A stretch of 49,130 nucleotides of DNA from an uncultured Candidatus Saccharibacteria bacterium (lineage in GTDB: Bacteria > Patescibacteriota > Doudnabacteria > UBA920). The stretch is from NCBI GenBank assembly GCA_964592725.1, contig CAZQFQ010000002.1, positions 1 to 49,130 of the forward strand, in the 5' to 3' direction. The position numbers and the translations under genes are program-made. The first letter of the stretch is position 1. Each line of letters starts with the position of its first letter. The notes beneath the pieces are model-generated. The model saw only the letters and a list, made by a program, of their open reading frames with translations, made no database searches and was not told where the DNA came from. This document shows positions 6,302 through 48,490 of the stretch, one piece after another.

Positions 6302-6332
6302 TTCTTTAACAACTCAATATGAGTAGCCTAAA

Positions 6333-6455
6333 CCTTAAATAATTTAAGGCATGGTTAAATCCACTGTAATGCAGAGACGGTCACCCGTCTTGTCTTAGCC
6401 ATTACAGTGGTCCCTAATCGAAAGGTTAGGTGGGGCAAGCGGGTGGCCCTTTTTG
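6333..6455 (+). ncRNA. candidate structured leader or small RNA upstream of the DUF4352 gene
   Basis: Hairpins: 6333-6349 (7-bp stem), 6361-6410 (11-bp outer stem CCACTGTAATG/CATTACAGTGG enclosing AGACGG-TCAC-CCGTCT) and 6413-6430 (5 bp). A weak GGGC...GCCC stem plus T5 follows at 6433-6454. Confidence 0.3.
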
Positions 6456-11041: not shown

Positions 11042-11116
11042 TGGCTGGGGCGGTAGGGATCGAACCTACGAATGGGGGCTTCAAAGGCCCCTGCCTTACC
11101 GCTTGGCTACGCCCCA
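11042..11116 (-). tRNA. tRNA-Gln (anticodon UUG), CCA encoded
   Basis: Cloverleaf read by eye: acceptor TGGGGCG/CGCCCCA, anticodon stem GGGGC/GCCCC with loop CTTTGAA, T arm GTAGG-TTCGATC-CCTAC, then G-CCA. Confidence 0.9.
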
Positions 11117-15101: not shown

Positions 15102-15182
15102 AGTCGTTAATTTTTATTTATAATTTTTATCTTTATTTTTTGTTTAACGCTTTTTTGGGTTTTGATTTTTATTTTCATAAAG

Positions 15183-15283
15183 AAATCGAATCAGCGAATT
15201 AGACGAATCTGCGAATGGCTGCGAATCAACGGATCTCAAATTCGTTGTCATTCGCAGATTCGTTCCATTCGTATATTCGATTT
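15183..15283. repeat. A-family ~100-nt palindromic element, copy A1
   Basis: AAATCGAAT...ATTCGATTT termini built from CGAAT/ATTCG words. Ends 1 nt before the rsmH stop codon. Confidence 0.85.
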
Positions 15284-15284
15284 A

Positions 15285-16226
15285 TTAAAATTTAATTATC
15301 GCCCTTAACTTTGCCGGCTTGCTTTTTGGGTTATGCGCTAATTCGTGCGAATTAGCCGTTACCGGTTTTTTTGTCAAAATTTTGCCTTTTGGATTTCGGC
15401 CGCACAAGCATTGGGGAAATTCCGGCGGACAAATACAGCCTTTGGTTAGTCCGACAAAAAACTGTTTGACGATTCTGTCTTCCAGAGAATGAAAGCTGAC
15501 GACAACCAGCCGTCCGCCGGGAACTAATAAATCAAAGGCTTTTGGCAAAAATTCGGAAAGATTTTCCAACTCATGATTCACTTCTATTCTTAATGCCTGG
15601 AATATTCTTCTGGCGCTGTCATCAGCTTTGTGCTTAACCGGCTTGGGCAGAGCTTCGACAATTATCTGATAAAGCTGATATGTGTGTTTTATTTCTATTT
15701 TATTTCCCCTATTTCTCAATATCCTTCTCGCAATTTGCTTAGAAAATTTCTCCTCGCCGTAATCTTCAAAAATTTTTACCAATCTCTTTTCGTCGTAATT
15801 ATTTAAAATAAACTTCGCGTCCAATTGTTGTGACAAGTCAAACCTCATATCCAGAGGCTGGTTGGTCTGAAAGCTTATTCCGCGGTGTTCCAATTCATAG
15901 GATGACAATCCCAAGTCCGCGACAATTCCATCCGGCGCCGGAAAATTATGATGTTTGATGATTTTATCAACGTGCGCAAAATTTCCCTGTTCAGTTATCA
16001 CCCTCTCCCTCTTGGAGAGGGTCAGGGTGAGGGTCTTAAAATTCTCAACCGCATCCTTATCCAAATCAATCGCCAACAATTTCCCGGTTTCACCAATTTC
16101 TTTTAATACCGCTGATGTATAACCACCTCCACCCAGCGTGGCGTCTACGATATTTTGACCCGGCTTAGGATCCAGGTATTCAAGAACTTCGTTCAGTAAT
16201 ACCGGAGTATGTTCATAATTTTGCAT
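15285..16226 (-). CDS. rsmH: 16S rRNA (cytosine1402-N4)-methyltransferase RsmH
   Basis: HTPVLLNEVLEYL, DATLGGGGYT, DLGLSSYELE and SFHSLEDRIVK. Confidence 0.9.
   Translation of the reverse strand: MQNYEHTPVLLNEVLEYLDPKPGQNIVDATLGGGGYTSAVLKEIGETGKLLAIDLDKDAVENFKTLTLTLSKRERVITEQGNFAHVDKIIKHHNFPAPDGIVADLGLSSYELEHRGISFQTNQPLDMRFDLSQQLDAKFILNNYDEKRLVKIFEDYGEEKFSKQIARRILRNRGNKIEIKHTYQLYQIIVEALPKPVKHKADDSARRIFQALRIEVNHELENLSEFLPKAFDLLVPGGRLVVVSFHSLEDRIVKQFFVGLTKGCICPPEFPQCLCGRNPKGKILTKKPVTANSHELAHNPKSKPAKLRAIIKF
15999..16035 (-). repeat. in-frame GGGAGAGGG-type palindromic element inside rsmH
   Basis: CACCCTCTCC-CTCTT-GGAGAGGG-TCAGGGTGAGGGTC, translated as ...KTLTLTLSKRERVITE... Confidence 0.75.
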
Positions 16227-16607: not shown

Positions 16608-16688
16608 GGATGACACAGCTGTGTCATTGCGAGGAGTGCATCCGACGAAGCAATCCCATTAAAGTTCGCTTCGGCTGCACTCGCGATG
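16608..16688. repeat. REP-like palindromes: TGACACAGCTGTGTCA plus GTCATTGCGAGGAGTGCATCCGACGAAGC...GCTTCGGCTGCACTCGCGATGAC
   Basis: Inverted arms read directly. The arms are related to the arms of the 128-nt element inside recJ (GTCATCCTGAGGGAGTGCATCCGA). Confidence 0.7.
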
Positions 16689-16697
16689 ACAGACAAG

Positions 16698-18851: not shown

Positions 18852-18856
18852 AAAAG

Positions 18857-18958
18857 AAATCGAATCTACGAATTAGACGAATCTGCGAAGGACAACGAAT
18901 GAACGAATTCAGCAATTCGTAGTTATTCGTTGATTCGTTCCGTTCGTAGATTCGATTT
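18857..18958. repeat. A-family palindromic element, copy A2
   Basis: Fills the whole spacer between the stop of 18961-19344 and the ATG of 18432-18851. Confidence 0.85.
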
Positions 18959-18960
18959 AT

Positions 18961-19344
18961 TTAAGTGAGCTTGACCGAACGCGCCAAAACGTCTTTTACT
19001 TTTTGGATAATATCGTCAACCGACTGGTCGGATTTCAGCAAATAATCCACAGCCCCGGCTTCCACAATCTTACTAATAGTTTCCACATCGCCGATGTTGG
19101 TCAAAACTACCACCGGAACTTTAGCCGTGGAAGGATTGGCTTTAAGCTCCCAAAGTACGGAAATGCCGTCCAACTTAGGCATCATAATGTCCAAAAGCAG
19201 CAAATCCGGCACTACTTCCTTGGCCTTTGCCACTGACTCTTCCCCGTCATAAGCCGGAGTAGGCTCAAATCCTGCTGTTTTGAGGGCCTCACATAGTGAA
19301 TTAGAGATAAGTTTGTCGTCTTCGGCCACTAAAATTTTTGGCAT
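18961..19344 (-). CDS. single-domain response regulator (CheY-like receiver)
   Basis: PKILVAEDDKLISN...LLLLDIMMPKLDGISVLWELK. Confidence 0.85.
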   Translation of the reverse strand: MPKILVAEDDKLISNSLCEALKTAGFEPTPAYDGEESVAKAKEVVPDLLLLDIMMPKLDGISVLWELKANPSTAKVPVVVLTNIGDVETISKIVEAGAVDYLLKSDQSVDDIIQKVKDVLARSVKLT

Positions 19345-19362
19345 TTTTTGGTTTCTCCCTTG

Positions 19363-19446
19363 CTTTACTAACTACTAATCTTTACTAATATACTAAAGCA
19401 CGATATCGAGAATTAGTATATTAGTACCGATTCGTAGTTAGTAAAG
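19363..19446. repeat. unique hairpin built from TACTAA/TTAGTA words
   Basis: CTTTACTAACTAC-7 nt-TACTAATATACTAA ... TTAGTATATTAGTA-7 nt-GTAGTTAGTAAAG, giving 13 + 14 bp of pairing. Lies between the kinase stop and the receiver start. Confidence 0.75.
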
Positions 19447-19477
19447 GCAGTTTTTAGTATACCTTTATTATACTATA

Positions 19478-21145
19478 TTATTTATCCAAAGGCAAAGAAA
19501 AGCAAAAGGTTGACCCTAGATTTTCCCCGGGGCTTTCGGCCCAAATTTTTCCGCCGTGCGCCTCTACAATCCCCTTGCTCACCACCAGCCCAAGCCCAGT
19601 GCCTTTGCGCGAACGGTCACCGGTTTTTAACTGCTTAAATTTGCTGAATAAGTCGGCCAAATCCTCCCGCGACACGCCGATGCCCGTGTCTTTTACCGAA
19701 ACCGTGGCCGTTTTTTCTTCGACGTTGATGTTTAGGTTAATATCAATCTGCCCGCTGTCGCTGTACTTAATCGCGTTGCTGATTAAATTGCCCAGCACCT
19801 GGCCAATCCTGACGCGGTCAAATTTTAACATATACTTTGGCGGGGCGGTGACGTTTATGGCCAGGTGTTTAATTTCCGCCTGCGGCCTAAAAACCTTGGC
19901 CTGATCGTTAATGACCTCAACTATATCGTACTGCTGGAGATTTAAGTCAAACTTTCCCGATTCAATTTTAGCCACGTCCAAAAGGTCATTGACCAGTTCC
20001 AGCATATTGTTGGAAGCCGTTTCAATGGTGACCATAGTGTCTTTGACTTTGGCCTGGTCAACTCCCGAGGCAATGCTCAAATTTTTTATCAAAGATTCCG
20101 AAGACCAGCGCACGGCCGTGAGCGGCGCGCGCAGTTCGTGCACCATCATGGCCGTAAATTCCTGCCTGGTTTTATCCAGAGTTTTTTCCGTGGTAATGTC
20201 GTGGAAAACCGCGCTGGCCGCGATAATTTCCCCCTGGCTGTCTTTAACCGGCGCTATGGTCAGCTCCAAAGCTTTATCTTTTAAAATTACTTCCGGCAGG
20301 GAAATGGCTTTATCCTCGGCAATGGCCTGCTCTATTTTTGTCCTCAAATCCACTTTGCCGGCCAGCCCGTCTACAATGTCGTACATAGTTACGGGCTTGC
20401 CCGAAGCAATGCCTAAAATATCCCGAATGACCGGATTATAAACCACCAGCTGATAGTTTAAATCCACGGTTATAACGCCGTCGGCCAGAGAATAAATAAC
20501 CGCTTCCAGCTTGCCTTTTTCGCTTTGCAAAACCGATTGGAGCTTGGATACTGCCGTGGCCGCCTGGTTGGTGATGGTATATAAAATGGAGGCCTGCTCT
20601 TCGCCGTAACGGCCGCGGTCTTTGGAAGCCACGTTTATCAGCCCGACCAATTTTTGGGAAATTACCACCGGCAAATTAAAAAAAGATTCCACTTTAACTT
20701 TTAGATTATCATTCAAAATATTGCCGGTAATGCTTTCGTCCATGCCCGCTGTTTGGATTTTGCTGTTTAAAATGGCTTCGTAAGACATTAGCATTTTATG
20801 CTTGATGTCTTCTATAAACTGGTGGTTTACGGTATTCTCCACGTGGCATTTAAAAACAACTTTGCCGCCTTCCTCCAAAACCATATAAGACACGGCGTCG
20901 TAATCCAGGAGGTTCCCCAAAGAGCTGGTAATAATATCCACAATTTTGTTGGTGTCCAAAGAGTAGCCGATGCGCTCGCTGATTTCCTTTAACACTTCGG
21001 CCTGATAAACTTTTTGCTGCAGCTCCAAAGACTGGTTGGCTTTGACGCGCAAAAATTTCCGTTCGCGCAAAGACGCGTAAATATACGCGCTGACGACAAC
21101 CGCCAGCATTAAAAAATCTATGATGAGGAGGATATTTACGATCAT
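19478..21145 (-). CDS. sensor histidine kinase (TM, sensory/PAS-like region, HisKA, HATPase)
   Basis: Start moved to ATG 21145 (MIVNILLII...). H-box HELRAPLTAV, G-boxes DTGIGV and GTGLGLVVSKGIVEAHGG. Confidence 0.9.
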   Translation of the reverse strand: MIVNILLIIDFLMLAVVVSAYIYASLRERKFLRVKANQSLELQQKVYQAEVLKEISERIGYSLDTNKIVDIITSSLGNLLDYDAVSYMVLEEGGKVVFKCHVENTVNHQFIEDIKHKMLMSYEAILNSKIQTAGMDESITGNILNDNLKVKVESFFNLPVVISQKLVGLINVASKDRGRYGEEQASILYTITNQAATAVSKLQSVLQSEKGKLEAVIYSLADGVITVDLNYQLVVYNPVIRDILGIASGKPVTMYDIVDGLAGKVDLRTKIEQAIAEDKAISLPEVILKDKALELTIAPVKDSQGEIIAASAVFHDITTEKTLDKTRQEFTAMMVHELRAPLTAVRWSSESLIKNLSIASGVDQAKVKDTMVTIETASNNMLELVNDLLDVAKIESGKFDLNLQQYDIVEVINDQAKVFRPQAEIKHLAINVTAPPKYMLKFDRVRIGQVLGNLISNAIKYSDSGQIDINLNINVEEKTATVSVKDTGIGVSREDLADLFSKFKQLKTGDRSRKGTGLGLVVSKGIVEAHGGKIWAESPGENLGSTFCFSLPLDK

Positions 21146-21915: not shown

Positions 21916-24900
21916 CTACGGCACCTCGTTAATGGTCGGACTGCTTTTGCCCGTACCAAAAGTCAGCCAGGGCGTGGATACGCCTGTCAGGATTGTTGTA
22001 CCGCCGGAATATACGCTAAAACTGTTCTGGAAACGGCTTTGGCTCTGGGTAACGGTGCCAGAAACCGCAAGCTGGGCAGTATAAGTGATATCAGCTATCG
22101 CGCCGACGGCAATGTTGTCCTGGCTGCTGGTAAGATTAAAGACAAGGGTTTGATCCGGCGAAGTGCCATAAGCACAATAATGGTTAGTGCCTGAAGGCGT
22201 GCAGGAACTGCCGGGATTAGCGCCGTCATAATGAAGAGTAACCGGCGAAGAACCGCCGTCGGTATATATGGCACTCCATCCCGCGGACGGCATCTGCAAA
22301 TTTGCCATTGTATCCGTAACCGTAATGTTACTGGTTGTGGCGGTGCCGTTGTCGTTGCAAAGATTAATCTGGAAGCCAATATTATCGCCGGCATTCATGG
22401 CTGCGCCGGCCGGCAGCGGGTCTGTATATCCGTCGCAGGCGCTAGCCCCGGAAACCGCCGTTCCGTTTATGGAAACAATATCTTTATCCGAATCGCCTAA
22501 GTTAGCCGAACAGGCAAGCGGAACCACGGGATTTTGACTACCCGCAGTCGGGCTGGTTTCCACGCCGCCGCTACTGACACCGGTAACCCAATAGTTGTAA
22601 GGCTGGCCTACGGTGGCCGTTGTGTCTGTATAAGTGGTTGTACCGGCGGGTATGGCGGTACTGTTAAGCTTGGAAGCGCCGCTAAAACTACTGCCGGTAC
22701 TGCGGTAAACATTGTAACTGTCCCCGCTTATAGGCGTCCAGCTTAGGCCAATTTGTCCGCAGGTGGCGGTATTATTTAAAGTTACGGTGGCGGGGCCGGA
22801 GCCGCCGCTGCATGAATTTGCGGAAACGCCGCCGGAAAAATTATTACTCGCCGCCACCAAAGTTCCGGTGCCTACGCCGCCACTGGTGCTTTCCACCCAG
22901 TAGTAATAAGGACCGCCGCTTACGTAATTGGTATAGGTTTGGTTTCCGATGTTGCCGTTTATTGGGGACTGGTTGCTCACAATTTTGGTCGCGCTGCTGC
23001 TGACGTTAATCGTATTGCGATAGACGTTGTAGCCGCTAGCGTTGCTGCCCGGCGTCCAGGTAATAACCAGGGTCTGACACTGGGCTCCCGTGCCGGCCGA
23101 AACGGAAATATTGCTTGAACTGCCGCCTCCCGGAGGACCGGGGATCACAACATATGTCACCCCAAGAGTCTGGGGGTTATTAGAAGCGTTAGAATCGGAA
23201 ATCTTAATACTGCAATTGTTAAAGGTACCGACGTTGGAAGGCGAGGTTACCGAGACTGTGACGGTTGACGGGGTGCCGCTTACCGCAACTGTGCCGGAAG
23301 TAGGGCTGACACTGCACCAGGTTCCCGCGCCGGTTGAGGTGGCTGTCCAGTTTAAGGTAGCACTGCCGGTATTACTGATGGTAAGAGTCTGACCGCCAGG
23401 AGTAGCACTTCCGGAAACGCCGTTAAAGGTCATAGAGGATGGGGAAAGGGAAATGGTGGGTGAATAAGAACAGGTGTTTGGGGAAATGCCGCCGGTGGAG
23501 TTAGTGCTGGCCGGGACTTGAATTCCGCTTAAGCCGGCGGAAAGATTGTATGATTGTACCCAGTAAAAGTAAGTACCGAAGGAATTATTATCTGTATAGG
23601 TCTGGTTACCGACATTGCCGTTCTGAACAGACATATTGGTCTGAATTTCGGTAGCCGTGCTTGTGCTATTGCTGGTATTGCGATAAATGTTATAGCCGCC
23701 CGCTCCGCTTCCCGGGGTCCAGGTTAAAACCACGCCTTGTGCCGGGCAAGTAGCCTGGGCGTCGGTAACTGTATTACCGGGACCACCGTCTACTGTTCCG
23801 GGGATCACAACATATGCCACCCCAAGAGTCTGGGGGTTATTAGAAGCGTTAGAATCGGAAATCTTGATACTGCAATTGTTAAAGCTGCCGACGTTGGAAG
23901 GCGAGTTTACCGAGACTGTGACGGTTGACGGGGTGCCGCTTACCGCAACTGTGCCGGAAGTAGGGCTGACACTGCACCAGGTTCCCGCGCCGGTTGAGGT
24001 GGCTGTCCAGTTTAAGGTAGCACTGCCGGTATTACTGATGGTAAGAGTCTGACCGCCAGGAGTAGCACTTCCGGAAACGCCGTTAAAGGTCATAGAGGAT
24101 GGGGAAAGGGAGATTGTAGGCGCAGGAGGAGAACCTGCGTTAACGGTTATTTGCTTGGTGCACTCATCACTGGCAATTGGTTGAAACCAAGTTACTCCCT
24201 CTTGCAACATATCCCAGTCAAATTTGTAAGTGCCGGGCGTAGAAGGAGCTGTTGCCGTGTAAACAAAGACCGCGTTGGCGCCGGGAGCAACGGTATTTGA
24301 AGGCAATTCTACCCGGCCAAATCCCCATGTGCTGTTATCCTGGGGATCCTGGGCGCCTAACCTGTAAGGTTGGGCGGAATCAACATTCACGCTTTTCCAA
24401 GTGTCGCTACCGGTGTTTTCCATAGTAGTGGTAGCGGAAAATTGCTGGCCGACGTAGACAGAAGACGGCGCGACTATGCTGACGCACGCGTCTTGGTGGG
24501 GGGTGGAAGCGGAACATTCAGATGGAAGCCAGACCCAGTTGCTACAACTCCCGCTGGAAGGGCCTGACTGGTTACCTGTTTCGCAACTGCCGCCGGAGTC
24601 TGTGCACCAGCCGCAACTATACCCTGCGTCGTACGGCACAGCACCACTACAATCAGTACAGGAATCTGAATAAGCATTGCAGGGATCTGAAGAAGGAGGA
24701 GTTTGGCAAGTCCCGCCTTGGCAGGTCAGAGTGCCGGTGCAAGGGTTGCCCGAGCTGCAGCAAGCTTTTCCCAATGCGCCACAAGCCGAAGGGGAAGTTA
24801 CCGTAACGCTCGCGCTGGCTGAAGCGGAGCCTCCCGGGCCGGTAGCGGTGTAAGTAAAAGTATAAGTATAGCCGTCCTGGCAAGCAAGGGTAGCGAGATT

Positions 24901-25347
24901 GGGGAGACTTCCCGAAGGGCCGGTTATACTGGAAACCGAACCGTTGGTATTGGCAGGGCTACAGCCATCCGCTCCGCCGGGAGTAATCGTCATCTTCGTA
25001 CTGCCGCCGGTCGCGGCGGTGGAACTCCAAACATATGAAACAGTGCCTACTCCGCCCACAACCGTAGCGGAATTAGAACCATTAACGGTCAGCGAAGCGG
25101 TAGGAACGGGATTAACAACCAAGTTATTAGGAGGAACCAGAGTTAAAGTTAGTACTTGCGATTGTGTCGCCCCTGTGGAGTCTGTTCCTAATACTGTAAC
25201 CGTAACTGTTGTAGCCGTTGTAAACGGGTTAGGGACAACAATTGGAATATCCCCCGTATCGGCGGCTTTAGCCGCCGAACAAACCAGCATCCCGCCTAAA
25301 ATAAAGCAAAACGCCAGCAAATATTTAAATGATTTTTGTTTCGTCAT
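21916..25347 (-). CDS. giant secreted/cell-surface repeat protein (1143 aa)
   Basis: Signal peptide MTKQKSFKYLLAFCFILGGMLVCSAAKA. A Cys-rich knot, two near-identical Ig/BACON-like modules, three Y(N)(V/I)YR(N/S)T Fn3-like modules and a DUF11-like C-terminal region. No C-terminal anchor is present. Confidence 0.85.
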   Translation of the reverse strand: MTKQKSFKYLLAFCFILGGMLVCSAAKAADTGDIPIVVPNPFTTATTVTVTVLGTDSTGATQSQVLTLTLVPPNNLVVNPVPTASLTVNGSNSATVVGGVGTVSYVWSSTAATGGSTKMTITPGGADGCSPANTNGSVSSITGPSGSLPNLATLACQDGYTYTFTYTATGPGGSASASASVTVTSPSACGALGKACCSSGNPCTGTLTCQGGTCQTPPSSDPCNAYSDSCTDCSGAVPYDAGYSCGWCTDSGGSCETGNQSGPSSGSCSNWVWLPSECSASTPHQDACVSIVAPSSVYVGQQFSATTTMENTGSDTWKSVNVDSAQPYRLGAQDPQDNSTWGFGRVELPSNTVAPGANAVFVYTATAPSTPGTYKFDWDMLQEGVTWFQPIASDECTKQITVNAGSPPAPTISLSPSSMTFNGVSGSATPGGQTLTISNTGSATLNWTATSTGAGTWCSVSPTSGTVAVSGTPSTVTVSVNSPSNVGSFNNCSIKISDSNASNNPQTLGVAYVVIPGTVDGGPGNTVTDAQATCPAQGVVLTWTPGSGAGGYNIYRNTSNSTSTATEIQTNMSVQNGNVGNQTYTDNNSFGTYFYWVQSYNLSAGLSGIQVPASTNSTGGISPNTCSYSPTISLSPSSMTFNGVSGSATPGGQTLTISNTGSATLNWTATSTGAGTWCSVSPTSGTVAVSGTPSTVTVSVTSPSNVGTFNNCSIKISDSNASNNPQTLGVTYVVIPGPPGGGSSSNISVSAGTGAQCQTLVITWTPGSNASGYNVYRNTINVSSSATKIVSNQSPINGNIGNQTYTNYVSGGPYYYWVESTSGGVGTGTLVAASNNFSGGVSANSCSGGSGPATVTLNNTATCGQIGLSWTPISGDSYNVYRSTGSSFSGASKLNSTAIPAGTTTYTDTTATVGQPYNYWVTGVSSGGVETSPTAGSQNPVVPLACSANLGDSDKDIVSINGTAVSGASACDGYTDPLPAGAAMNAGDNIGFQINLCNDNGTATTSNITVTDTMANLQMPSAGWSAIYTDGGSSPVTLHYDGANPGSSCTPSGTNHYCAYGTSPDQTLVFNLTSSQDNIAVGAIADITYTAQLAVSGTVTQSQSRFQNSFSVYSGGTTILTGVSTPWLTFGTGKSSPTINEVP
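23141..23460 (-). repeat. intragenic ~320-bp repeat, copy 1
   Basis: Almost identical to 23801-24120, with about 6 substitutions outside the last ~15 nt. Confidence 0.9.
23801..24120 (-). repeat. intragenic ~320-bp repeat, copy 2 (660-bp offset)
   Basis: See copy 1. Encodes PTISLSPSSMTFNGVSGSATPGGQTLTISNTGSATLNWTATSTGAGTWCSVSPTSGTVAVSGTPSTVTVSV... Confidence 0.9.
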
Positions 25348-25573: not shown

Positions 25574-25601
25574 ATCCGCGCTTGTCCGACGAAGCTTTAG
25601 C
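25574..25601. repeat. REP-like segment CTTGTCCGACGAAGCTTTAGCGAAGCC
   Basis: Near-identical to CTTGTCCGCCGAAGCTTTAGCGAAGGT inside the recJ insertion (37365-37391). Confidence 0.6.
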
Positions 25602-25762
25602 GAAGCCATGTCCAAATCCTCGTTTATAAAAAATTGGCCGGGGGTGAGTCGGTCTGATTGTCGCAGTGCTTGCGAAATCATTCGAATCACCCCGGTGCGC
25701 TCCCCGAAAATCGGGAGCGGCTTAGATGGTCTTGCGGAGGGCGGTGTCTCATTCGCCGCCTC

Positions 25763-26737
25763 CTATTGAGAATTGCCGCTGCCTGCAATCAAGGCCGACA
25801 AAAACGTTCCTGTCGGCGACGGCGTAAAGTGTACGCTGTATGACCGAGCCACTCTGGCAAAACAAGCCGCGGGAAACAAATCCCCGACAACTTGCCCTGT
25901 CTGAAGAGCGTCCGCGCCGATGGACAGCGTCGGACCCGTGCACACCGGGTTGTTACCGTCGTCGGTAGACAACCAAGTGGTTACGGTGTCGGGAGCCAGT
26001 CCGACGTTTTTGACCACAAACGAAGTTTGTTGTGGATTGCCAACGCCAGCAACAGGAGGCTTGGTCTGAATTTCGCGGCGGACTGTGCCTGCGGGAGATG
26101 GCAATGGCGAAGAAGGATCCGCTATGTTCATCTGAACGCTGACGTCAGCGCCCGCGGCTATATCGCGAACCCTCATCAGTTTAAACACGGCAGTCGGCTG
26201 GCCGTTGTTCATAATAACGGCCTGAAGCGGCGCGTCGCCGGCAATCTCGCAAGCGTCCTGCAACACCGCAAACTGGTCCAGCAATGCCGGGAGCGCGGGA
26301 TCACCGACTGTCCCGTAAGCCTGGACGTACACATCGGCACTGCCGATGAAAGGACCGGGAGCCGGGGCGCTTGTGCCGCCAACACCGATTAGATCCACCC
26401 ATCGGGTGTATGCGACCATGGGCAGGATAATTTGGGGATCCGAAACCGTTCCCCCATTATCGAAAGTCGCCCAAACGCTCGTAGATGACCCGGTTGCCGA
26501 CATATAGTTGGTATGAGCTTCCAACTCTACGGGGTTTCCCGTTTGGTTGATGACCTTCAACCGAGTTTTTGCAGTAGGATAGTTGCCGATGACGACGAGG
26601 GCGTTATACTCGTCGTAGCAACCACTCTCCACAATCCCGTAAATGCCGCAGTTGGCTGGGGCATTGGTTTGCGCTTTCAGAGTCTCCGCGAACAGGAACG
26701 CTAAAAACGCGAGAATAACAAAAACCATGCGCTTCAT
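25763..26737 (-). CDS. secreted hypothetical protein, visibly more GC-rich than its neighbours
   Basis: Start set at ATG 26737, with GGAGGA 7 nt upstream. Signal peptide MKRMVFVILAFLAFLFAETLKAQ. Has its own promoter and terminator. Confidence 0.75.
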   Translation of the reverse strand: MKRMVFVILAFLAFLFAETLKAQTNAPANCGIYGIVESGCYDEYNALVVIGNYPTAKTRLKVINQTGNPVELEAHTNYMSATGSSTSVWATFDNGGTVSDPQIILPMVAYTRWVDLIGVGGTSAPAPGPFIGSADVYVQAYGTVGDPALPALLDQFAVLQDACEIAGDAPLQAVIMNNGQPTAVFKLMRVRDIAAGADVSVQMNIADPSSPLPSPAGTVRREIQTKPPVAGVGNPQQTSFVVKNVGLAPDTVTTWLSTDDGNNPVCTGPTLSIGADALQTGQVVGDLFPAACFARVARSYSVHFTPSPTGTFLSALIAGSGNSQ

Positions 26738-26770
26738 TTTGGGTTCCTCCAACTTTCTTTTTCTGGCAAT

Positions 26771-29187: not shown

Positions 29188-30528
29188 CTATAACTCCTTT
29201 ACCCTCCCAAACCCGATGGAATCGCTAAAGGCTTTGCCGGCCGGGAGCATTTGCGCGCGGAGGATGGTAAACTCGCCGTATTTATTGTTGATTTTGTCCA
29301 GGGCTAAAAGCAGGCGTTTTTGGCGTTCCGCGTCGCCGAACAAACTTAATTGGTTTTCGTGCAGTCTCAACCCGGCTACCGTAACGCCGATGAGTTTGGT
29401 ACCCTCCGTAGGGGAGGGTTTCAAACCCTCCCCTACGCCGCCTGTCATCATCTTCTCGCATTCCAAAAATATCTCCCGTCCATCCTGCAAAAAATATCCC
29501 AGCTTAATACTCTTACCAAACCCTTCATAATTTTTATCGTGGCAATAAAAATGAATAACATTCCCCATCAGCCCTTTTTTGCGCAAACGCCGGCCGACCA
29601 TTTCGCACAATTTATACAGCACGGGCATAAAAAATTCCGGCTTGCGAAATTCCACGGGCAAAGTATACATATGCCCCATTGATTTTATCTCTTGTTCCTG
29701 ATGAACGAGCTCTTTCCAGGTTCCCTCAAGTTGCCCGATGTTATACAAATGATGCCCCATAATATTGCCAAACCGGCTGACCAAATGGCTTTTGGGATAA
29801 TCCCGCAAATCCTTGAGCGTGCGGATGCCGAGCGCGTTTAAATTTTTTTCCTGCCTCCGGCCGATGCCCGGGATGTCTATCAACCGCAATTGATCGTACA
29901 ATTGATTTTTAATCAAAATGTCGCAATTGCCATCGCCGTAGGGGCGGGTTTGAAACCCGCCCCTACAATGGCCATAAGGCAAGATCACAACAAGTCCATC
30001 CGGCTTTTTCATATCCGACCCGATTTTGGCGAGCAGTTTATTTTCCGCGATGCCGATACTGCACCTTAGCCAGTCCCCGACCTCGGTTTTAAACCGCCGC
30101 TTAATTTCTTGCGCGATGCTTACGGCTTCTTCAAAGGGGTCTACCAGCTGATATGCTGATAAGCTGATCAGCTGATCAGCTGTCCTGACATTACACGCCT
30201 TGGTCAAATCCGCGAACACCTCGTCTATGCTGTAAACTTCCACCGCTGATGTGTAGTCGGACACCACCTTGACCATCAACCGATTAAAATGCCGGTAACG
30301 CTCCGGCCGCGTGGGCGTAAGAATAATTTTCGGGTAAAGTTTTACGGCTTCCCAAACCGGCGTGCCGGTTTTAACGCCCCATTTTTTTGCCTCCACGCTG
30401 GCCGCGATTATTATGCCGCCCAAATGCTCGCACACGCCTAAGGGCTTGCCGCGCCAGGCTAAATTATCCTGCTGTTCAACAGAGGCAAAGTAGCTGTTCA
30501 TATCAAGATGCATAATAACGGTCTGCAT
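29188..30528 (-). CDS. dinB: DNA polymerase IV (Y-family)
   Basis: Start set at ATG 30528 (MQTVIMHLDMNSYFASVEQ). IDEVFADLT and SIGIAENKLLAKIGSDMKKPDGL. The track's N-terminal extension is a translation of the leader hairpin. Confidence 0.9.
   Translation of the reverse strand: MQTVIMHLDMNSYFASVEQQDNLAWRGKPLGVCEHLGGIIIAASVEAKKWGVKTGTPVWEAVKLYPKIILTPTRPERYRHFNRLMVKVVSDYTSAVEVYSIDEVFADLTKACNVRTADQLISLSAYQLVDPFEEAVSIAQEIKRRFKTEVGDWLRCSIGIAENKLLAKIGSDMKKPDGLVVILPYGHCRGGFQTRPYGDGNCDILIKNQLYDQLRLIDIPGIGRRQEKNLNALGIRTLKDLRDYPKSHLVSRFGNIMGHHLYNIGQLEGTWKELVHQEQEIKSMGHMYTLPVEFRKPEFFMPVLYKLCEMVGRRLRKKGLMGNVIHFYCHDKNYEGFGKSIKLGYFLQDGREIFLECEKMMTGGVGEGLKPSPTEGTKLIGVTVAGLRLHENQLSLFGDAERQKRLLLALDKINNKYGEFTILRAQMLPAGKAFSDSIGFGRVKEL
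29407..29437 (-). repeat. in-frame perfect palindrome CGTAGGGGAGGGTTT-C-AAACCCTCCCCTACG inside dinB
   Basis: 15-bp arms, translated as GGVGEGLKPSPTEG. Confidence 0.8.
29938..29966 (-). repeat. in-frame perfect palindrome GTAGGGGCGGGTTT-G-AAACCCGCCCCTAC inside dinB
   Basis: 14-bp arms, translated in a different frame as CRGGFQTRPYG. Differs from 29407-29437 by a compensated A/T to C/G change in the arms. Confidence 0.8.
30145..30183 (-). repeat. in-frame tandem 8-mer / palindromic tract (NAGCTGAT)x4-5 inside dinB
   Basis: CAGCTGATATGCTGATAAGCTGATCAGCTGATCAGCTG, translated as TADQLISLSAYQLV. Confidence 0.7.
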
Positions 30529-30604
30529 ATCCTTTATCCTTAATCCCTTATCCTTTACCACTGCATGCGATCAAGGATGAAAGATAAAAGATTAAGGATA
30601 ATTC
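30529..30604 (-). promoter_or_regulatory. dinB 5' UTR consisting of one hairpin that pairs AAGGAU (SD-like) words with AUCCUU words
   Basis: 12 perfect bp, then about 14 more. Four C.A mismatches on the plus strand become G.U pairs in minus-strand RNA. The hairpin ends at the start codon. Confidence 0.5.
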
Positions 30605-35061: not shown

Positions 35062-35064
35062 AAT

Positions 35065-35165
35065 AAATCGAATCTGCGAATTAGACGAATCTACGAATGA
35101 CTACGAATTAACGAATTCGTACTTCGTAGGGATTCGTTGATTCGTTCCATTCGTAGATTCGATTT
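35065..35165. repeat. A-family palindromic element, copy A3
   Basis: Spans from about the predicted mreB transcription start to 4 nt before the mreB ATG. Has a central ACGAATTCGT. Confidence 0.85.
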
Positions 35166-35170
35166 ATTGA

Positions 35171-35199
35171 ATTATAGCAACATAACGGCATTGAAACAA
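35171..35199 (-). promoter_or_regulatory. mreB promoter (TTGTTT-17-TGcTATAAT)
   Basis: The minus strand reads TTGTTTcaatgccgttatgtTGcTATAAT. Confidence 0.5.
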
Positions 35200-36648: not shown

Positions 36649-37098
36649 CTATGCCGCTTCGTCTATGACCTGATTAACCAATTTGTCCGCTTCCTTATTT
36701 TGTTCCCTTGGAACGTGATGAAATGTCACGTTTTTAAATTGGTTGCGGAGTTTTAAAACTTCCGCGGCCAACAGCTTAAGCGTCGGTTCTTTTATTTTAT
36801 ATTGGCCAATCATTTGGCGCACAACAAGTTCGCTGTCCATGCGGATCTCGAGGTCAACTTTATTCCCCTCTCCCTTTGGGAGAGGGGTCAGGGGTGAGGG
36901 TTTTTTCGATAATTCCCTAGCCTTCTCCAACGCTAAAATCAGCGCCTTGTATTCGGCCACGTTATTTGTCGCCTCGCCGATGTATTGCTTATATTCGCCG
37001 ATGATTTGGTTATCATCAGCGCGAATAACCACGCCAATCCCCGCCGGCCCGGGATTTCCCCTGGCCCCGCCGTCTGTATTTATAATTAGTTTTGACAT
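36649..37098 (-). CDS. rnhA: ribonuclease HI
   Basis: INTDGGARGNPGPAGIG, NNVAEYKALILAL, MDSELVV and HVPREQNKEADKLVNQ. Confidence 0.85.
   Translation of the reverse strand: MSKLIINTDGGARGNPGPAGIGVVIRADDNQIIGEYKQYIGEATNNVAEYKALILALEKARELSKKPSPLTPLPKGEGNKVDLEIRMDSELVVRQMIGQYKIKEPTLKLLAAEVLKLRNQFKNVTFHHVPREQNKEADKLVNQVIDEAA
36865..36902 (-). repeat. in-frame GGGAGAGGG-type palindromic element inside rnhA
   Basis: CCCCTCTCCC-TTT-GGGAGAGGGG-TCAGGGGTGAGGGTT, translated as KKPSPLTPLPKGEGNKV. Confidence 0.8.
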
Positions 37099-37159: not shown

Positions 37160-39148
37160 CTAATCCGATTTTCTAACATCAATAACCCTCAATTTTACCC
37201 CTTCCCTTCCGTTCCAATTGTCCGCGATAAGTTCCGCAGCTACGTCTACAGTATCGCCGATTTTTAAACTTTTGGCAAAATCCGGGGCGTTAAACATAAT
37301 TCCGGATATTTCCTGGCCGCCTCCACCACCTACGGCGTCATCCTGAGGGAGTGCATCCGACCGGCTTGTCCGCCGAAGCTTTAGCGAAGGTGGAAGGATC
37401 CCTTTATCCGCAATCTGAGATTCTTCCCCCTCGCTCGGATGCACTCGCTCGGGGTCAGAATGACGCCGGAAAAACGATACAAACTTTATCTGCAAATGCT
37501 GATTTTGCTTGCCGACCATGCGCACCGATGATACTTGGAGGTTAGGAATCAAAAATTTGGGCGTAACATTATCCACCCCAAAAGGTTCTAGCCGAAGCAA
37601 CAATTGACAATTAACGATTGACAATTGACCGGGGGACAACTCCGCTTCCAGCTCCAAAACTTTTTGCGACTTTTCATTATTTATATTTTCCTCGGCGTAT
37701 ACCAGAAGCTTCTGGTAAAAAAGCTCAAATTGATCGGCTTGCAAACTCAATCCCGCGGCTTGCTTGTGGCCGCCGAATTTGGACAAATGTGCGGAAGAAA
37801 ATTTCAACGCCTCCAACATATTAAACTCGCCGGCTGTCCTGGCCGATCCTGTGCACAAGTTTTCCGTCCTCTCCAAAACAATGGTCGGCTTATAAAATTC
37901 CTCGGCCAGTTTTCCCGCCACCAAACCCATTATGCCTTTTGGCCAGCCCTCGCCCACCAACGCCAAAACTTTTCGCTCTTTAAGCAGTAAAACTTTTTCT
38001 TTGGCTTCGCTCAAAACCGAGGCCGTCAGTCCCTGCCGCCGCGCGTTTATAGCTTCCAGATTGCGGGCTTTTTCTTGCGCCTGATGAAGGTCTGTTTCCA
38101 TCAACAAATTCAAAGCAATCCCGGCGTGCTCCAGCCGTCCGGCGGCGTTTAAGCGAGGCGCTATAATAAAGCCAAGTGTATAAGTATCAAGCTTAACGAG
38201 GGTAACCCTCGGAGCCCGAGGGTTACCCTCGTTAATTAACCCGGCTGATTCCATCAAGGCGCGAAGGCCAATCCATTTAGTTTTAGCCAATACCTGCAAG
38301 CCATATTTTACCAATATGCGATTTTCGCCAAGCAGGCTGTGGCAGTCGGCCACGGTGCCAATAGCTACGAGATCCAGGAGCCATTTTTCCCAGCCTTTAA
38401 TTCCCTGCTGCCTGTTGCCTACTGCCTTTCCCCTGCTCAATATTCCGCAAGCCAGCTTAAAAGCCACCCCAACCCCGGTAATTTCCCGGTACGGATAGCC
38501 GTCATCAGAATTTTTAGGATTTATCAGCGCGTAAGCTTTTGGAACTTCGCCGATAATTTCGTGGTGGTCGGTGATAATTAAATCTATTTGATTTGCTTTA
38601 CAAAATTCCGCGGCGTCAACGGAATTCGTCCCGCAGTCAACGGTAATGATTATCTTTGATCCTTCATCCTTTATCTTTTGTAATGCCTCAATATTGACTC
38701 CGTATCCTTCCGAAAAACGATCCGGAATATATGACGCCACTTCAACCCCTAAATATCTAAAAGTCTGCCCCAAAACAGCGTTGGCGGTTATGGCGTCGGC
38801 ATCGTAATCACCGTAAACGCAAATTTTTTCCCGGCTGTCTATTGCCTTCCAAATCCGCTCCACCGCTTTTTCCATATCCTGAAACAAAAACGGGCTGTGC
38901 AAGTTTTCGTATTTCGGCTCCAAAAAATCCTGAATCTGCTCTTTCTCAAGCAGCCCTCTATTATAAAGCAACTGCGCCAGCAATACCTGATCCCCCTCTC
39001 CCTTTGGAAGAGGGTCAGGGTGAGGGTTTGATGATAAAAAACCGATGATCTTTCCCTTAGCCTCCTCCGGCACCCCTGGTTTTAATTTCCAAATTTTTGC
39101 CATATACTCTATTTTATCAGTTAAAGTCAATAAAGTGTAGTCTATCAA
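37160..39148 (-). CDS. recJ: single-stranded-DNA-specific exonuclease RecJ
   Basis: VYGDYDADAIT, ITVDCGT, IITDHH and GGHKQAAG (DHH/DHHA1). An alternative start is ATG 39103. Confidence 0.9.
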   Translation of the reverse strand: MIDYTLLTLTDKIEYMAKIWKLKPGVPEEAKGKIIGFLSSNPHPDPLPKGEGDQVLLAQLLYNRGLLEKEQIQDFLEPKYENLHSPFLFQDMEKAVERIWKAIDSREKICVYGDYDADAITANAVLGQTFRYLGVEVASYIPDRFSEGYGVNIEALQKIKDEGSKIIITVDCGTNSVDAAEFCKANQIDLIITDHHEIIGEVPKAYALINPKNSDDGYPYREITGVGVAFKLACGILSRGKAVGNRQQGIKGWEKWLLDLVAIGTVADCHSLLGENRILVKYGLQVLAKTKWIGLRALMESAGLINEGNPRAPRVTLVKLDTYTLGFIIAPRLNAAGRLEHAGIALNLLMETDLHQAQEKARNLEAINARRQGLTASVLSEAKEKVLLLKERKVLALVGEGWPKGIMGLVAGKLAEEFYKPTIVLERTENLCTGSARTAGEFNMLEALKFSSAHLSKFGGHKQAAGLSLQADQFELFYQKLLVYAEENINNEKSQKVLELEAELSPGQLSIVNCQLLLRLEPFGVDNVTPKFLIPNLQVSSVRMVGKQNQHLQIKFVSFFRRHSDPERVHPSEGEESQIADKGILPPSLKLRRTSRSDALPQDDAVGGGGGQEISGIMFNAPDFAKSLKIGDTVDVAAELIADNWNGREGVKLRVIDVRKSD
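37337..37464 (-). repeat. ~128-nt REP-like inverted-repeat element inside the recJ 3' region
   Basis: The arms are GTCATCCTGAGGGAGTGCATCCGA and TCGGATGCACTCGCTCGGGGTCAGAATGAC. Translated as ...RRHSDPERVHPSEGEESQIADKGILPPSLKLRRTSRSDALPQDDAV... Confidence 0.75.
38195..38233 (-). repeat. in-frame perfect 18-3-18 palindrome inside recJ
   Basis: AACGAGGGTAACCCTCGG-AGC-CCGAGGGTTACCCTCGTT, translated as NEGNPRAPRVTLV. Confidence 0.8.
38992..39028 (-). repeat. in-frame GGGAGAGGG-type palindromic element inside the recJ 5' region
   Basis: CCCCCTCTCCC-TTT-GGAAGAGGG-TCAGGGTGAGGGTT, translated as NPHPDPLPKGEGDQ. Confidence 0.8.
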
Positions 39149-40853: not shown

Positions 40854-40954
40854 TGATACCAATATACTAAATATACGAATGATACCAATAATACTAATCT
40901 TGAGTAATCCGTATTATTAGTATCATCAGTATTTAAATTCGTATATTAGTATCA
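40854..40954. repeat. unique hairpin built from GATAC/AATA/TACTAA words in the eno-gpmI spacer
   Basis: TGATACCAATATA...GATACCAATAATAC pairs with GTATTATTAGTATC...TATATTAGTATCA. The C.A mismatches become G.U pairs on the minus (sense) strand. Confidence 0.65.
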
Positions 40955-42235
40955 TATAATTGCTTCTATCTCCAGCAACCGATTATATTTCGCCAACCGT
41001 TCCCCGCGACAAGGCGCGCCGGCTTTTATGTATTCCGCGTTCACAGCCACGGCCAGGTCGGCGATAAAATCATCTGATGTCTCCCCGCTTCTGTGCGAAA
41101 TGACGATTTTATATTTATTTTTTTGCGAAAGTCTAACGGCCGCCAAAGTTTCCGTTAGCGTGCCGATTTGGTTTAGTTTGATTAAAACCGCGTTGGCGAT
41201 TTTTTGGGTGATGCCCATTTGGATTCGTTGCGGATTGGTCACAAACAAATCGTCGCCGATGAGCAAAGTTTTATCGCCCAAATTTTGAGTTAAAAATTTC
41301 CAGCCCAACAAATCGTCCTGCGCGCAACCGTCTTCTATTGCCATAAGCGGATATTTGGCCAGCCATTTTTTGTAGACTTGATAAATGTTGGCCGACGTGG
41401 CGGACATTTTGCCGGCCTTGAATTCGTAAATGCCTTTTTTCTCGTTAAAAAACTCGCTGGATGCCGCGTCCAGTCCCAAAGCAAAATCCCTCCCTAGTTT
41501 ATATTTTGCCGATTTTATTGCGGCCTCAAGTTGTTTAAACGCGTCTTCATTGGAAGAAAGTTTTGGCGCGAACCCGCCCTCATCGCCTACCGAAGTTGCG
41601 AGCCCCTTAGCCGCGAGTTGCGATTTTAACGCGTGATACACTTCCGCGCCCATTCTTAGCTTATTGGCAAAATTTCCCCTAAGCGGAACAAGGAAAAACT
41701 CCTGCACATCCAAACCGCTGTCCGCGTGCACCCCGCCGTTTATAACATTAAAAAACGGGGTCGGTATTTTATACGCTTCCCTCCCCCTCTGGGGGAGGGT
41801 CAGGGAGAGGGTTTCATCGTCTGGCAAATACATCCCCCTCAAATACTCAAAAAGCTCCCTTTTTTGGCATTTTGCGGCCAGCCTGGCCGAAGCGAGCGAA
41901 ACCGATAAAATGGCGTTCGCGCCAAGTTTGGCCTTATTGTCCGTGCCGTCCAGCTCTATCATCATTTCGTCAATTTTTTGCTGATCCCCGCAAGATATCC
42001 CCTTAACAGCCTTAAATATCTTTTCTTCCACATTCCGGCAAGCCTTAAGCACGCCCTTACCGCCATACCGCTTTTTATCCCCATCCCGGAGCTCCAAAGC
42101 CTCATGCACCCCGGTAGAAGCCCCGCTGGGCACGCTGGCCTTAGCGCTAATATCTCCCGCCCAAACCGTGGTCTCCACCGTCGGATTTCCCCTACTATCC
42201 AACACCTCCAAAGCCCTAATTTTTGTTATCTTCAT
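40952..42235 (-). CDS. eno: enolase
   Basis: ITKIRALEVLDSRGNPTVETTVW, SVPSGASTGVHEALELRDGD and ISHRSGETSD. Confidence 0.95.
   Translation of the reverse strand: MKITKIRALEVLDSRGNPTVETTVWAGDISAKASVPSGASTGVHEALELRDGDKKRYGGKGVLKACRNVEEKIFKAVKGISCGDQQKIDEMMIELDGTDNKAKLGANAILSVSLASARLAAKCQKRELFEYLRGMYLPDDETLSLTLPQRGREAYKIPTPFFNVINGGVHADSGLDVQEFFLVPLRGNFANKLRMGAEVYHALKSQLAAKGLATSVGDEGGFAPKLSSNEDAFKQLEAAIKSAKYKLGRDFALGLDAASSEFFNEKKGIYEFKAGKMSATSANIYQVYKKWLAKYPLMAIEDGCAQDDLLGWKFLTQNLGDKTLLIGDDLFVTNPQRIQMGITQKIANAVLIKLNQIGTLTETLAAVRLSQKNKYKIVISHRSGETSDDFIADLAVAVNAEYIKAGAPCRGERLAKYNRLLEIEAII
41779..41812 (-). repeat. in-frame GGGAGAGGG-type palindromic element inside eno
   Basis: CCCTCCCCC-TCT-GGGGGAGGG-TCAGGGAGAGGGT, translated as DDETLSLTLPQRGREAY just before the conserved P.P..NViNGG segment. 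Confidence 0.8.
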
Positions 42236-46312: not shown

Positions 46313-47469
<1,157 letters not shown>

Positions 47470-47473
47470 CTTA

Positions 47474-48490
47474 TTAATCTTTTTTCTTGCTGACCATCTC
47501 CATTATTTCTTTTTTTATTTTTTCATCCGCTATTTCAATAACCTTAAAATCTTTTAACCTTTTCAGCTCGGCTTCCATCTCGTGCTTTTTAAGCAACCCC
47601 GCTTGCGGCCCGACCTCTTGGACAACGGAGCCGGCGTTAATGGGACCCCAACGCAGGGCCTCACGATGAGGCAAGCCGTGAGCCAAAGCCGCAATATAGG
47701 CTGTGGTAAACGCGTCGCCCGCGCCCGTGGCTTCAATAAGCGGGCCGGGATATTCCGCGATATAATAAAATCCTTCTTTGCTGTAACTATAAGCGCCGCG
47801 GCGGCCGTCGGTCAAGGCGATTGCCTTGGGTCCCAACTTCATCAGCTTTTTACAAAGCTCCTCCGGGTCGCGCCCGCTTTCGCCCACCCAGCTTTGCGCT
47901 TCTTCCACGTTTACCGATAATAAATCTGTATGCCCCAACATCAGTTTATTTTCTTCCGGCCCGGCCCTAAGCTGAAAAGTCCCCGGGTTAAAACCCAAAC
48001 GAACATTATAGCGGTCCAGATATTTTGCCAAATCCTGATAAATTGTTTCAAAACCCAAACCCATGCTCGTTAAGTATATCCACGATGAATGGACAAACGG
48101 CGGCAATTTATATTTCCGGTGTTCGTGGTAAACAAAAATCGTGCGTTCGCCGTCGTGGCTCAGTACCGTAGAAGCATTGGTCGGGTGTTTGTCATTTTTG
48201 ATAATGTAGCGGGTGGACACGCCTTCCTTTTCCATTTTGTGCACAATTTCGCGTCCGCCGGTGTCGTGCGCCACCACGCAATAATACGCCGTCCTAAGGC
48301 CCAGTCGGCTGCTTCCCACGGCGTTATTGGCCGCGTTGCCGGCCACGGTGCGATAGAATTTGTCCACAGGCAATTTATCGCCCCAATTAATTATAGCTTT
48401 TTTAACGCCGCCAATTTCCTTTATTTCCACGTCCTTAACAATCAAGAACGTGTCTATTGTCGGATCGCCGATGCTGATAATATCAAACAT
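47474..48490 (-). CDS. PfkB-family carbohydrate/nucleoside kinase
   Basis: 338 aa. GAGDAFTTAYIAAL (PfkB signature 2) and an N-terminal GD.T.D.F pattern. Confidence 0.8.
   Translation of the reverse strand: MFDIISIGDPTIDTFLIVKDVEIKEIGGVKKAIINWGDKLPVDKFYRTVAGNAANNAVGSSRLGLRTAYYCVVAHDTGGREIVHKMEKEGVSTRYIIKNDKHPTNASTVLSHDGERTIFVYHEHRKYKLPPFVHSSWIYLTSMGLGFETIYQDLAKYLDRYNVRLGFNPGTFQLRAGPEENKLMLGHTDLLSVNVEEAQSWVGESGRDPEELCKKLMKLGPKAIALTDGRRGAYSYSKEGFYYIAEYPGPLIEATGAGDAFTTAYIAALAHGLPHREALRWGPINAGSVVQEVGPQAGLLKKHEMEAELKRLKDFKVIEIADEKIKKEIMEMVSKKKD

Follow-up and report, generated by a model that had tools for sequence, protein, structure and literature searches.

Palindromic, non-autonomous repeats of about 150 bp, known as RPEs, occur in-frame in unrelated housekeeping genes of Rickettsia (Ogata et al. 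2000, as summarised in PMC10969869). Several families coexist there, and in that summary their peptide segments are judged compatible with the fold and function of the host protein. In-frame fusions are also formed by bacterial MITEs (transposable elements of the miniature inverted-repeat type) such as ERIC, QMITE1 of Coxiella and those of Anabaena (PMC10969869, PMC5896051). The triplex motif TM_ECO, earlier called 'PIT', has the pattern CCCTCNCCC-N3-6-GGGNGAGGG-N3-GGGNGAGGG and is present in 3610 copies in 262 proteobacterial genomes; in E. coli MG1655 it is reported as 'always' intergenic, without strand bias (Holder et al. 2015, PMC4666352). REP sequences (repetitive extragenic palindromes) are predominantly extragenic by definition. 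Their doublets (REPINs) have spacers of tens of nucleotides in Pseudomonas, and the architecture that joins REPs to REP-associated tyrosine transposases (RAYTs) was described by Bertels and Rainey (2011; PMC3337134, PMC3116915); REPs and their RAYTs are also the subject of Nunvar et al. 2010, as cited in PMC3337134. Here we describe a recJ gene that carries in-frame inserts from three different repeat families. It lies in a 49,130-nucleotide stretch of DNA (the window; contig CAZQFQ010000002.1, positions 1 to 49,130) from an uncultured Candidatus Saccharibacteria bacterium, placed in the Doudnabacteria of the candidate phyla radiation (CPR) by its GTDB lineage.

The recJ coding sequence occupies 37160-39103 on the minus strand, starts at the ATG at 39103 and encodes 647 amino acids. 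The open reading frame (ORF) listed at 37160-39148 (minus) opens with a TTG at 39148, an unlikely start given that orthologues begin M-x-K-I-W-K. A first-pass annotation of the window had proposed three inserts of three repeat families in this gene, with the frame open through all of them. Both parts of the proposal held: each family is dispersed, each insert is missing from some syntenic orthologues, and conserved RecJ sequence returns after each insert. All three features lie at the proposed coordinates or a few bases from them, and chance would not be expected to produce any of them. The features within the gene are as follows.

38994-39026, plus strand: insert 1, a 33-nt motif, CCCTCTCCC-TTT-GGAAGAGGG-TCA-GGGTGAGGG.
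38193-38235, no strand: insert 2, a perfect 20-3-20 palindrome of two inverted 17-nt units, (A)CGAGGGTAACCCTCGG / CCGAGGGTTACCCTCG(T).
37333-37468, minus strand: insert 3, a 136-nt hairpin with terminal inverted repeats CGGCGTCATYCTGA, a second stem GAGTGCATCCGA and an inner stem GAAGAATCTC/GGGATCCTTC.
37316-37480, minus strand: the variable block at the OB site, residues 542-596 (VSFF...GGGGG), which replaces the four codons K-T-G-N of orthologues lacking the insert, with a net gain of 153 nt.
37370-37389, minus strand: core of a fourth repeat nested in insert 3, CTTCGCTAAAGCTTCGGCGG-ACAAG, encoding part of PPSLKLRRTS.

For comparison, 29 RecJ orthologues (59-78% identity) were aligned. Eight syntenic loci (L001-L008), derived from independent ENA, JGI and Logan samples and sharing the gene order enolase-iPGM-recJ-RNase H-PEGA-mreB, were taken as DNA and codon-aligned. 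Empty sites were found for all three inserts.

N-terminal site: 105 nt in the window against 57 nt in the empty L001, net +48.
Middle site: 69 nt in the window against 48 nt in the empty L002, L004 and L005, net +21.
OB-fold site: 195 nt in the window against 42 nt in the empty L002, L006 and L007, net +153.

The net gains sum to 74 codons. Subtracting these from 647 leaves 573 amino acids, which matches the 567-577 of insert-free relatives, and the three inserts therefore account for the extra length of this RecJ. The N-terminal site is also empty in the orthologue P0014. The first-pass annotation had named occurrence of the segments in RecJ of unrelated lineages as evidence that would count against its proposal; distant RecJ sequences and the solved RecJ structures lack all three.

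We consider it highly probable that three families of structure-forming, non-autonomous repeat DNA have colonised recJ, itself probably a functional gene, at three permissive surface loops. Elements of this kind would insert throughout the gene-dense genome, and the only insertions to survive would be those that keep the frame and land in tolerant loops. The encoded peptides would then be passengers, forming disordered loops rich in Pro, Gly, Ser and Arg rather than functional domains. By analogy, the recJ case can be read as selfish repeats colonising coding sequence as the RPEs do, ordinary in kind but dense. The likeness to RPEs, as far as these are described in the summary cited above, is one of behaviour: the recJ inserts are palindromic and in-frame, belong to several families and sit in a small gene-dense genome. 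In contrast to RPEs the host is a CPR bacterium, no sequence relationship is known, and at 33-43 nt two of the recJ inserts fall far short of the RPE length of about 150 bp. A further difference is that in recJ different families reuse the same loop and elements nest in each other.

The identification of the gene as recJ, made in the first-pass annotation, is upheld by both domain and structure matches. The product has Pfam matches above cutoff to DHH, DHHA1 and RecJ_OB, the last as two separate stretches divided by insert 3. Matching solved structures are the RecJ proteins of S. aureus (8y30, E = 3.5e-87) and D. radiodurans (5f54, E = 1.3e-57), and the named relatives, from Candidatus Doudnabacteria or Patescibacteria group bacteria, are about 55% identical, from which it follows that the organism, an ultra-small bacterium, belongs to the CPR. 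All invariant RecJ residues are present (DYDAD 99-103, TDHH 178-181, GTVAD 249-253, GGHKQ 444-448), so that the protein is a RecJ by domain architecture as well as by its catalytic DHH motifs, and the enzyme is predicted to be active.

An AlphaFold model built on the orthologue alignment had a mean predicted local distance difference test score (pLDDT) of 71.6. When superposed with Foldseek, it gave a TM-score of 0.78 against S. aureus 8y30 and 0.69-0.71 against D. radiodurans RecJ. The pLDDT fell below 50 over inserts 1, 2 and 3 (residues 27-36, 293-298 and 546-595) and was about 30 over the last of these, between β-strands at 536-543 and 598-603. It was also below 50 at residues 226-235, the position of a fourth hot spot that is empty in the window recJ. 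Since confidence falls at the inserts while the remaining model fits solved RecJ, the protein resembles a normal RecJ to which the three inserts add what seem to be disordered surface loops. An intein, an intron or a recoding signal at the inserts was rejected, since the reading frame runs through them without interruption and motifs of these kinds are lacking. Predicted tryptic peptides include IIGFLSSNPHPDPLPK, ALMESAGLINEGNPR and VHPSEGEESQIADK.

Amplification chimeras can create perfect palindromes, and the sequence comes from assembled contigs. The inserts might accordingly be assembly or amplification artefacts, or recJ a decaying pseudogene, an explanation to which we give almost no credence. 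An identical allele with all three inserts is present on a second contig (45,425 nt), and an identical C-terminal recJ fragment that includes insert 3 on a third (981 nt), which argues against a one-off assembly artefact; equivalent inserts also occupy the same sites in independent ENA, JGI and Logan assemblies. The intact ORF, the complete set of invariant residues and the preserved predicted fold argue against a pseudogene.

Insert 1 consists of a C-block, a loop, a G-block, TCA and a second G-block, with the G-rich strand as the recJ template strand. It encodes NPHPDPLPKGEGD (residues 26-38, 38990-39028). The element had been placed at 38992-39028 with the peptide PHPDPLPKGEGD; it is confirmed with the motif at 38994-39026 and the peptide as given, and repeat similarity around it extends over 38985-39044. 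The family 1 pattern has four matches in the window and none in 100 shuffles (0.00 expected). The three further copies are these.

36866-36898, plus strand: in-frame copy in the RNase H gene (rnhA; 36649-37098, minus), peptide PSPLTPLPKGEGN.
41779-41811, plus strand: in-frame copy in the enolase gene (eno; 40952-42235, minus), peptide TLSLTLPQRGRE.
16001-16033, plus strand: in-frame copy in the rsmH/mraW methyltransferase gene (15285-16226, minus), peptide TLTLTLSKRERV.

Two of these sites, too, are empty in some relatives: the RNase H site in L001 and L004, and the enolase site in L001, L003 and L004. About 250 kb of related contigs hold 21 copies of family 1, in recJ, rnhA, eno, rsmH, dinB and other genes, and the same DNA is read in different frames, as PHPDPLPKGEG, TLTLTLSKRER or PSPLTPLPKGEG.

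By sequence pattern, family 1 belongs with TM_ECO. Compared with that pattern, which allows one stem mismatch, the four window copies show 0-3 mismatches (one in the recJ copy, none in the enolase copy, an exact match). Insert 1 thus fits a TM_ECO-like motif, the triplex fold being putative for its TCA-loop variant. The local genomic variability published for TM_ECO also parallels the variable sites of family 1. The location differs: all four window copies are in-frame in genes of a CPR genome, whereas the E. coli copies are reported as intergenic and the genomes counted are proteobacterial. TM_ECO is here in an unreported coding context. Family 1 is moreover strongly strand-biased and has TCA as its second loop, where TM_ECO has TTA or CCG. 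The core of the recJ copy also matches unannotated intergenic DNA on plasmids of Klebsiella, Aeromonas, Citrobacter and Enterobacter, at 92-95% identity over 40 nt. An exact 30-base version is present in 87 IMG/VR viral contigs, mostly of high GC, where ORF-based orientation is unreliable and was not used.

The peptide PCTSRLTPVQGK is nested at the same position in two family 1 copies, one in the RNase H gene of L008 (5601-6143) and one in the enolase gene of L006 (6846-8168). Its shared position in two genes of two genomes suggests that the triplex motif is itself the target of another small element.

Insert 2 encodes NEGNPRAPRVTLV (residues 291-303) and consists of two inverted copies of a palindromic 17-nt unit, CCGAGGGTWACCCTCGG, separated by a 3-nt spacer. 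Its DNA fold has an energy of -24.2 kcal/mol (z = -9.3). The first-pass annotation had reported a perfect palindrome of 18-3-18 at 38195-38233; the palindrome and its peptide stand, while the arms are longer, giving 20-3-20 at 38193-38235. It occurs once in the 49-kb window, and its assignment to a repeat family is supported by metagenome data from outside the window. A scan of metagenomes for the family 2 doublet found 34 stretches, and nine contigs of a single metagenome sample, in which several genomes are possible, carry the doublet in-frame in long ORFs. Hosts confirmed by Pfam are AtpG, UvrC, AlaRS, Mur ligase, Dus and EngA. The pattern used on the genome collection (GAGGGN3CCCTC...GAGGGN3CCCTC) was too permissive, and most of the matches listed are GC-rich actinobacterial hairpins; the informative low-GC matches among those listed include LigA, in a Doudnabacteria genome, DnaG, MiaA and others. 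Family 2 had no match in viral contigs or plasmid records.

The doublet is also associated with genes for Y1 transposases. On contig L126 a Y1_Tnp gene (1411-2058) lies between doublets at 1372-1409 and 2072-2109, which form 55-nt inverted arms with 84% complementarity. On L144, similarly, a Y1_Tnp gene (6-689) holds its own doublet in-frame (171-208, RAEGNPLQNRRGLPSV), and further doublets are found downstream of it at 705-770 and at 2274-2329. For both proteins the best NCBIfam match, below the curated cutoff, is REP-associated tyrosine transposase. The Y1 family has thousands of relatives, with named homologues from Paceibacterota and Ryanbacteria.

Insert 2 therefore resembles a REP doublet (REPIN), with inverted palindromic units that form a hairpin (a perfect 20-bp stem) and with doublets that flank Y1 (HUH) genes of the REP-associated type. 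Unlike REPs, the window copy and most metagenome copies are in-frame inside long ORFs, the spacer is 3 nt rather than the tens of nucleotides of Pseudomonas REPINs, and the link of a RAYT to the window genome is indirect, none being found in the window. We suggest that family 2 may be mobilised in trans, as single-stranded hairpin DNA, by a REP-associated-type Y1 transposase encoded elsewhere. Separately, the syntenic locus L005 has a Y1_Tnp gene (18861-19535) that scores 74.8 bits to the NCBIfam REP-associated tyrosine transposase; it is flanked by an inverted repeat of its own, AAAGGTGTCAGGAGCC / GGCTCCTGACACCTTT, unrelated to the recJ elements.

An origin in place is also to be considered at the middle site. 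Replication template switching or hairpin-primed inverted duplication within recJ could produce palindromes that are not mobile copies. The insert adds only 21 nt where the palindrome measures 43 nt, and one arm overlaps host-like codons (T-L-V-K against T-L-I-K in the empty L005). The window palindrome reaches 3 bp past the 17-nt unit of the family on each side, and each lineage carries a perfect palindrome of its own here. Against this, the 16-17-nt unit recurs as the same doublet in many unrelated genes and beside Y1 transposase genes, a distribution that comes close to refuting evidence, and families 1 and 3 are clearly dispersed. We regard an origin of the palindromes in place as quite improbable.

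Insert 3 forms an extended hairpin with imperfect pairing (fold energy -37 kcal/mol, z = -5.1), bounded by 14-nt terminal inverted repeats with 93% complementarity. A REP-like element of about 128 nt at 37337-37464 had been predicted here. The element is real, with wider bounds than predicted, since the inverted repeats delimit 136 nt. The GGGGG run that had been counted within it lies outside the inverted repeats (37316-37330), though inside the block absent from insert-free orthologues. Family 3 copies of 85-146 nt share the nested stems GGCGTCATYCTGA, GAGTGCATCCGA and GAAGRATCTC. They are present in coding and intergenic DNA of L001, L003, L004, L005, L007 and L008, with at least 12 copies in related loci, and occur in both orientations; the coding sites are the recJ OB site, dinB and the fourth recJ hot spot. 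The window itself has an intergenic relative.

16620-16693, plus strand: hairpin of about 74 nt, of the GTCATTGCGAGGAGTGCATCCGA... subtype.

No match to family 3 was found in plasmid records or viral contigs.

Small, multi-copy, bounded by terminal inverted repeats and lacking a transposase gene, insert 3 shares these properties with MITEs. Like ERIC, QMITE1 and the Anabaena elements (PMC10969869, PMC5896051), its family forms non-coding hairpins that lie both between and within genes. It departs from them in that no target-site duplication is visible (the flanks have diverged) and no parent insertion sequence was found. A further difference is that all the family 3 copies compared, nine in number and compared by eye, share two asymmetric stem mismatches, which points to copies made faithfully from a founder, or to strand-specific recognition.

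The nested repeat, CTTCGCTAAAGCTTCGGCGGACAAG, is absent from the shorter orthologous elements in L001, L004 and L008. Copies were found in the window at 25586-25605, in L005, in L006 (three), in L008 and in L131 (two), and in other loci the repeat also stands alone and within the loops of family 1 copies. Insert 3 is thus composite, and we propose that a MITE-like hairpin was itself hit by a fourth small repeat. The window copy at 25586-25605, CTTCGCTAAAGCTTCGTCGGACAAG, stands alone in the gap between the ORFs at 21916-25347 and 25763-26752.

Close relatives vary at all three insert sites, and sister sequences in a neighbour-joining tree differ in state. At the OB site at least three unrelated element types occur across lineages: RRHSD...EESQ...QDDA; VIARSASDEAI...LLAMT, a different family, in L005; and still other variants in P0013 and P0034. 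The fourth hot spot, after GILS, holds family 1, family 3 or other repeats in relatives. Judged from these alignments, the insert sites are recurrent hot spots at which other lineages hold other families. Decayed copies are present at the N-terminal site in L004 and L008 and at the middle site in L008, which fits elements that are not maintained after insertion.

These comparisons also bear on whether the segments are lineage-specific functional insertions of RecJ, for example interaction loops, whose palindromy is incidental. All orthologues with these segments keep the frame, and related peptides recur at the same sites (PLPxGEG; GSPLG..RGTL; RRHSD..EESQ..QDDA), as would be expected of functional loops. 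Unrelated families nevertheless occupy the same site, the segments are missing from solved and distant RecJ, and all three have the low pLDDT described above. The DNA is in addition reused independently of frame in different genes, and this explanation is for that reason largely refuted; we consider it very improbable.

An action at the level of the nucleic acid is another reason for which the inserts might be kept. They could be exapted as hairpins that affect mRNA stability or translation, as RNase III sites, or as DNA structures for recombination or protein binding. Consistent with this, stems are nearly always perfect, with paired compensatory variants between copies, and family 1 is strongly biased in orientation relative to the gene. 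Synonymous-site identity reaches 0.71 in the OB element, moderately above the 0.49 of the recJ core, whereas that of the N-terminal element (0.48) equals the gene background. The E. coli TM_ECO consensus folds in vitro into a stable intrastrand triplex and is associated with locally unstable loci, although TM/PIT motifs showed no promoter or terminator activity (PMC4666352). A comparison of G·U with A·C mismatches over the family 1 copies, made with regard to the RNA strand, had very few mismatches available. None of the three elements matched an Rfam family, either when the whole window was searched at gathering thresholds or when the recJ region was searched at E<=1. Close relatives that share the gene order have empty sites, different families replace one another at one site, and some copies have decayed. 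A retained nucleic-acid role is, on this evidence, improbable.

Several observations weigh against colonisation by mobile repeats as the full account. More than a single indel separates the filled from the empty alleles at the N-terminal site, where P0014 has an empty allele that resembles that of distant lineages. No target-site duplication is visible in any comparison of filled with empty sites, the flanks being much diverged, and no clean insertion boundary could be drawn. At the middle site the net gain is about half of the 43-nt palindrome, so that a simple insertion needs a loss of host codons, or else the palindrome arose partly in place. The orthologous palindromes at this site are perfect (arms of 19-22 nt in five of six carriers), yet they differ between lineages, each change on one arm being matched on the other; L008, the sixth carrier, has a degraded copy. 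Neutral passengers descended from one insertion would not give this pattern. Either related subfamilies must have entered the one loop several times independently, or some process must make the arms symmetrical.

Of the 21 family 1 copies in the window and the related loci L001-L008 and L135-L156, 20 have the C-rich strand as sense strand, which corresponds to about 11 of 12 independent sites. The bias is not explained by stop codons, because two of three frames are open either way; it could come from insertion that is specific to one replication strand, or from selection against G-rich sense strands. The 49-kb window yielded no transposase of any kind, and tblastn with the Y1 protein of L005 gave no match there. 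The Y1 association itself comes from metagenome contigs of uncertain taxonomy, with NCBIfam scores below the curated cutoff. Expression and activity of the RecJ protein are predictions from the sequence.

A broader proposal, which we put forward tentatively, is that several structure-forming families (a triplex motif, REPIN-like mini-doublets with RAYT-type transposases of their own, MITE-like hairpins and small nested elements) live systematically inside the essential genes of Doudnabacteria-like CPR genomes and not between them, re-hitting the same loops and each other's hairpin loops. If so, the repeats would be mobilised by a machinery directed at hairpins or single-stranded DNA, and would be a main driver of protein-length variation in CPR. 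On this view the perfect palindromes that differ by lineage at one site would result from re-invasion, time and again, or from an active process that makes them symmetrical.

In-frame repeats of this kind are apparently undescribed for this lineage. Literature searches by sequence string found only family 1 published, and no paper was found that links MITEs, REPINs or RAYTs to repeats in CPR genomes. Where a CPR genome has almost no intergenic space, selfish repeats can persist in permissive loops of housekeeping proteins. Two classes described as inter- or extragenic, TM_ECO and REP-type doublets, are found here in coding sequence, and the doublets are linked to Y1 transposase genes with close homologues named from CPR bacteria. 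In-frame inserts also inflate and destabilise marker-gene alignments, explain length variation among orthologues and may be mis-annotated as low-complexity domains, while their presence or absence could serve as a marker for strain tracking. A triplex motif and a perfect 20-bp palindrome in a DNA-repair gene are natural test cases for the tolerance of such structures in replication, transcription and translation.

The window contains other repeats. A dinB-like gene (29188-30561, minus) has two in-frame palindromes, at 29407-29437 and 29938-29966, of the form GTAGGGG(A/C)GG-GTTTSAAAC-CC(T/G)CCCCTAC, which encode GGFQTRPY and VGEGLKPSPT. The peptide VGEGLKPSPT or VGAGLKPAPT is also present in UvrC, Dus, EngA and Mur ligase on Ga0181520 contigs, and its sharing across these genes indicates that the dinB palindromes are a further dispersed in-frame family. 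A palindromic repeat of about 115 nt, AT-rich and rich in CGAAT, occurs in four copies (15180-15294, 18854-18964, 35062-35176 and 47361-47475), two of which are 99% complementary over 94 nt. These copies apparently lie between genes, and the repeat is distinct from the three recJ families.

Two Rfam matches in the window score above gathering thresholds, a LOOT RNA at 6325-6449 (plus strand, 63 bits) and a tRNA at 11045-11116 (minus strand, 64.8 bits). Finally, an ORF of 1143 amino acids (21916-25347, minus) contains 300-nt direct repeats at 23138-23437 and 23798-24097, which are 98% identical and 660 nt apart, together with a weaker 97-nt repeat pair, and this points to an internally repetitive large protein.

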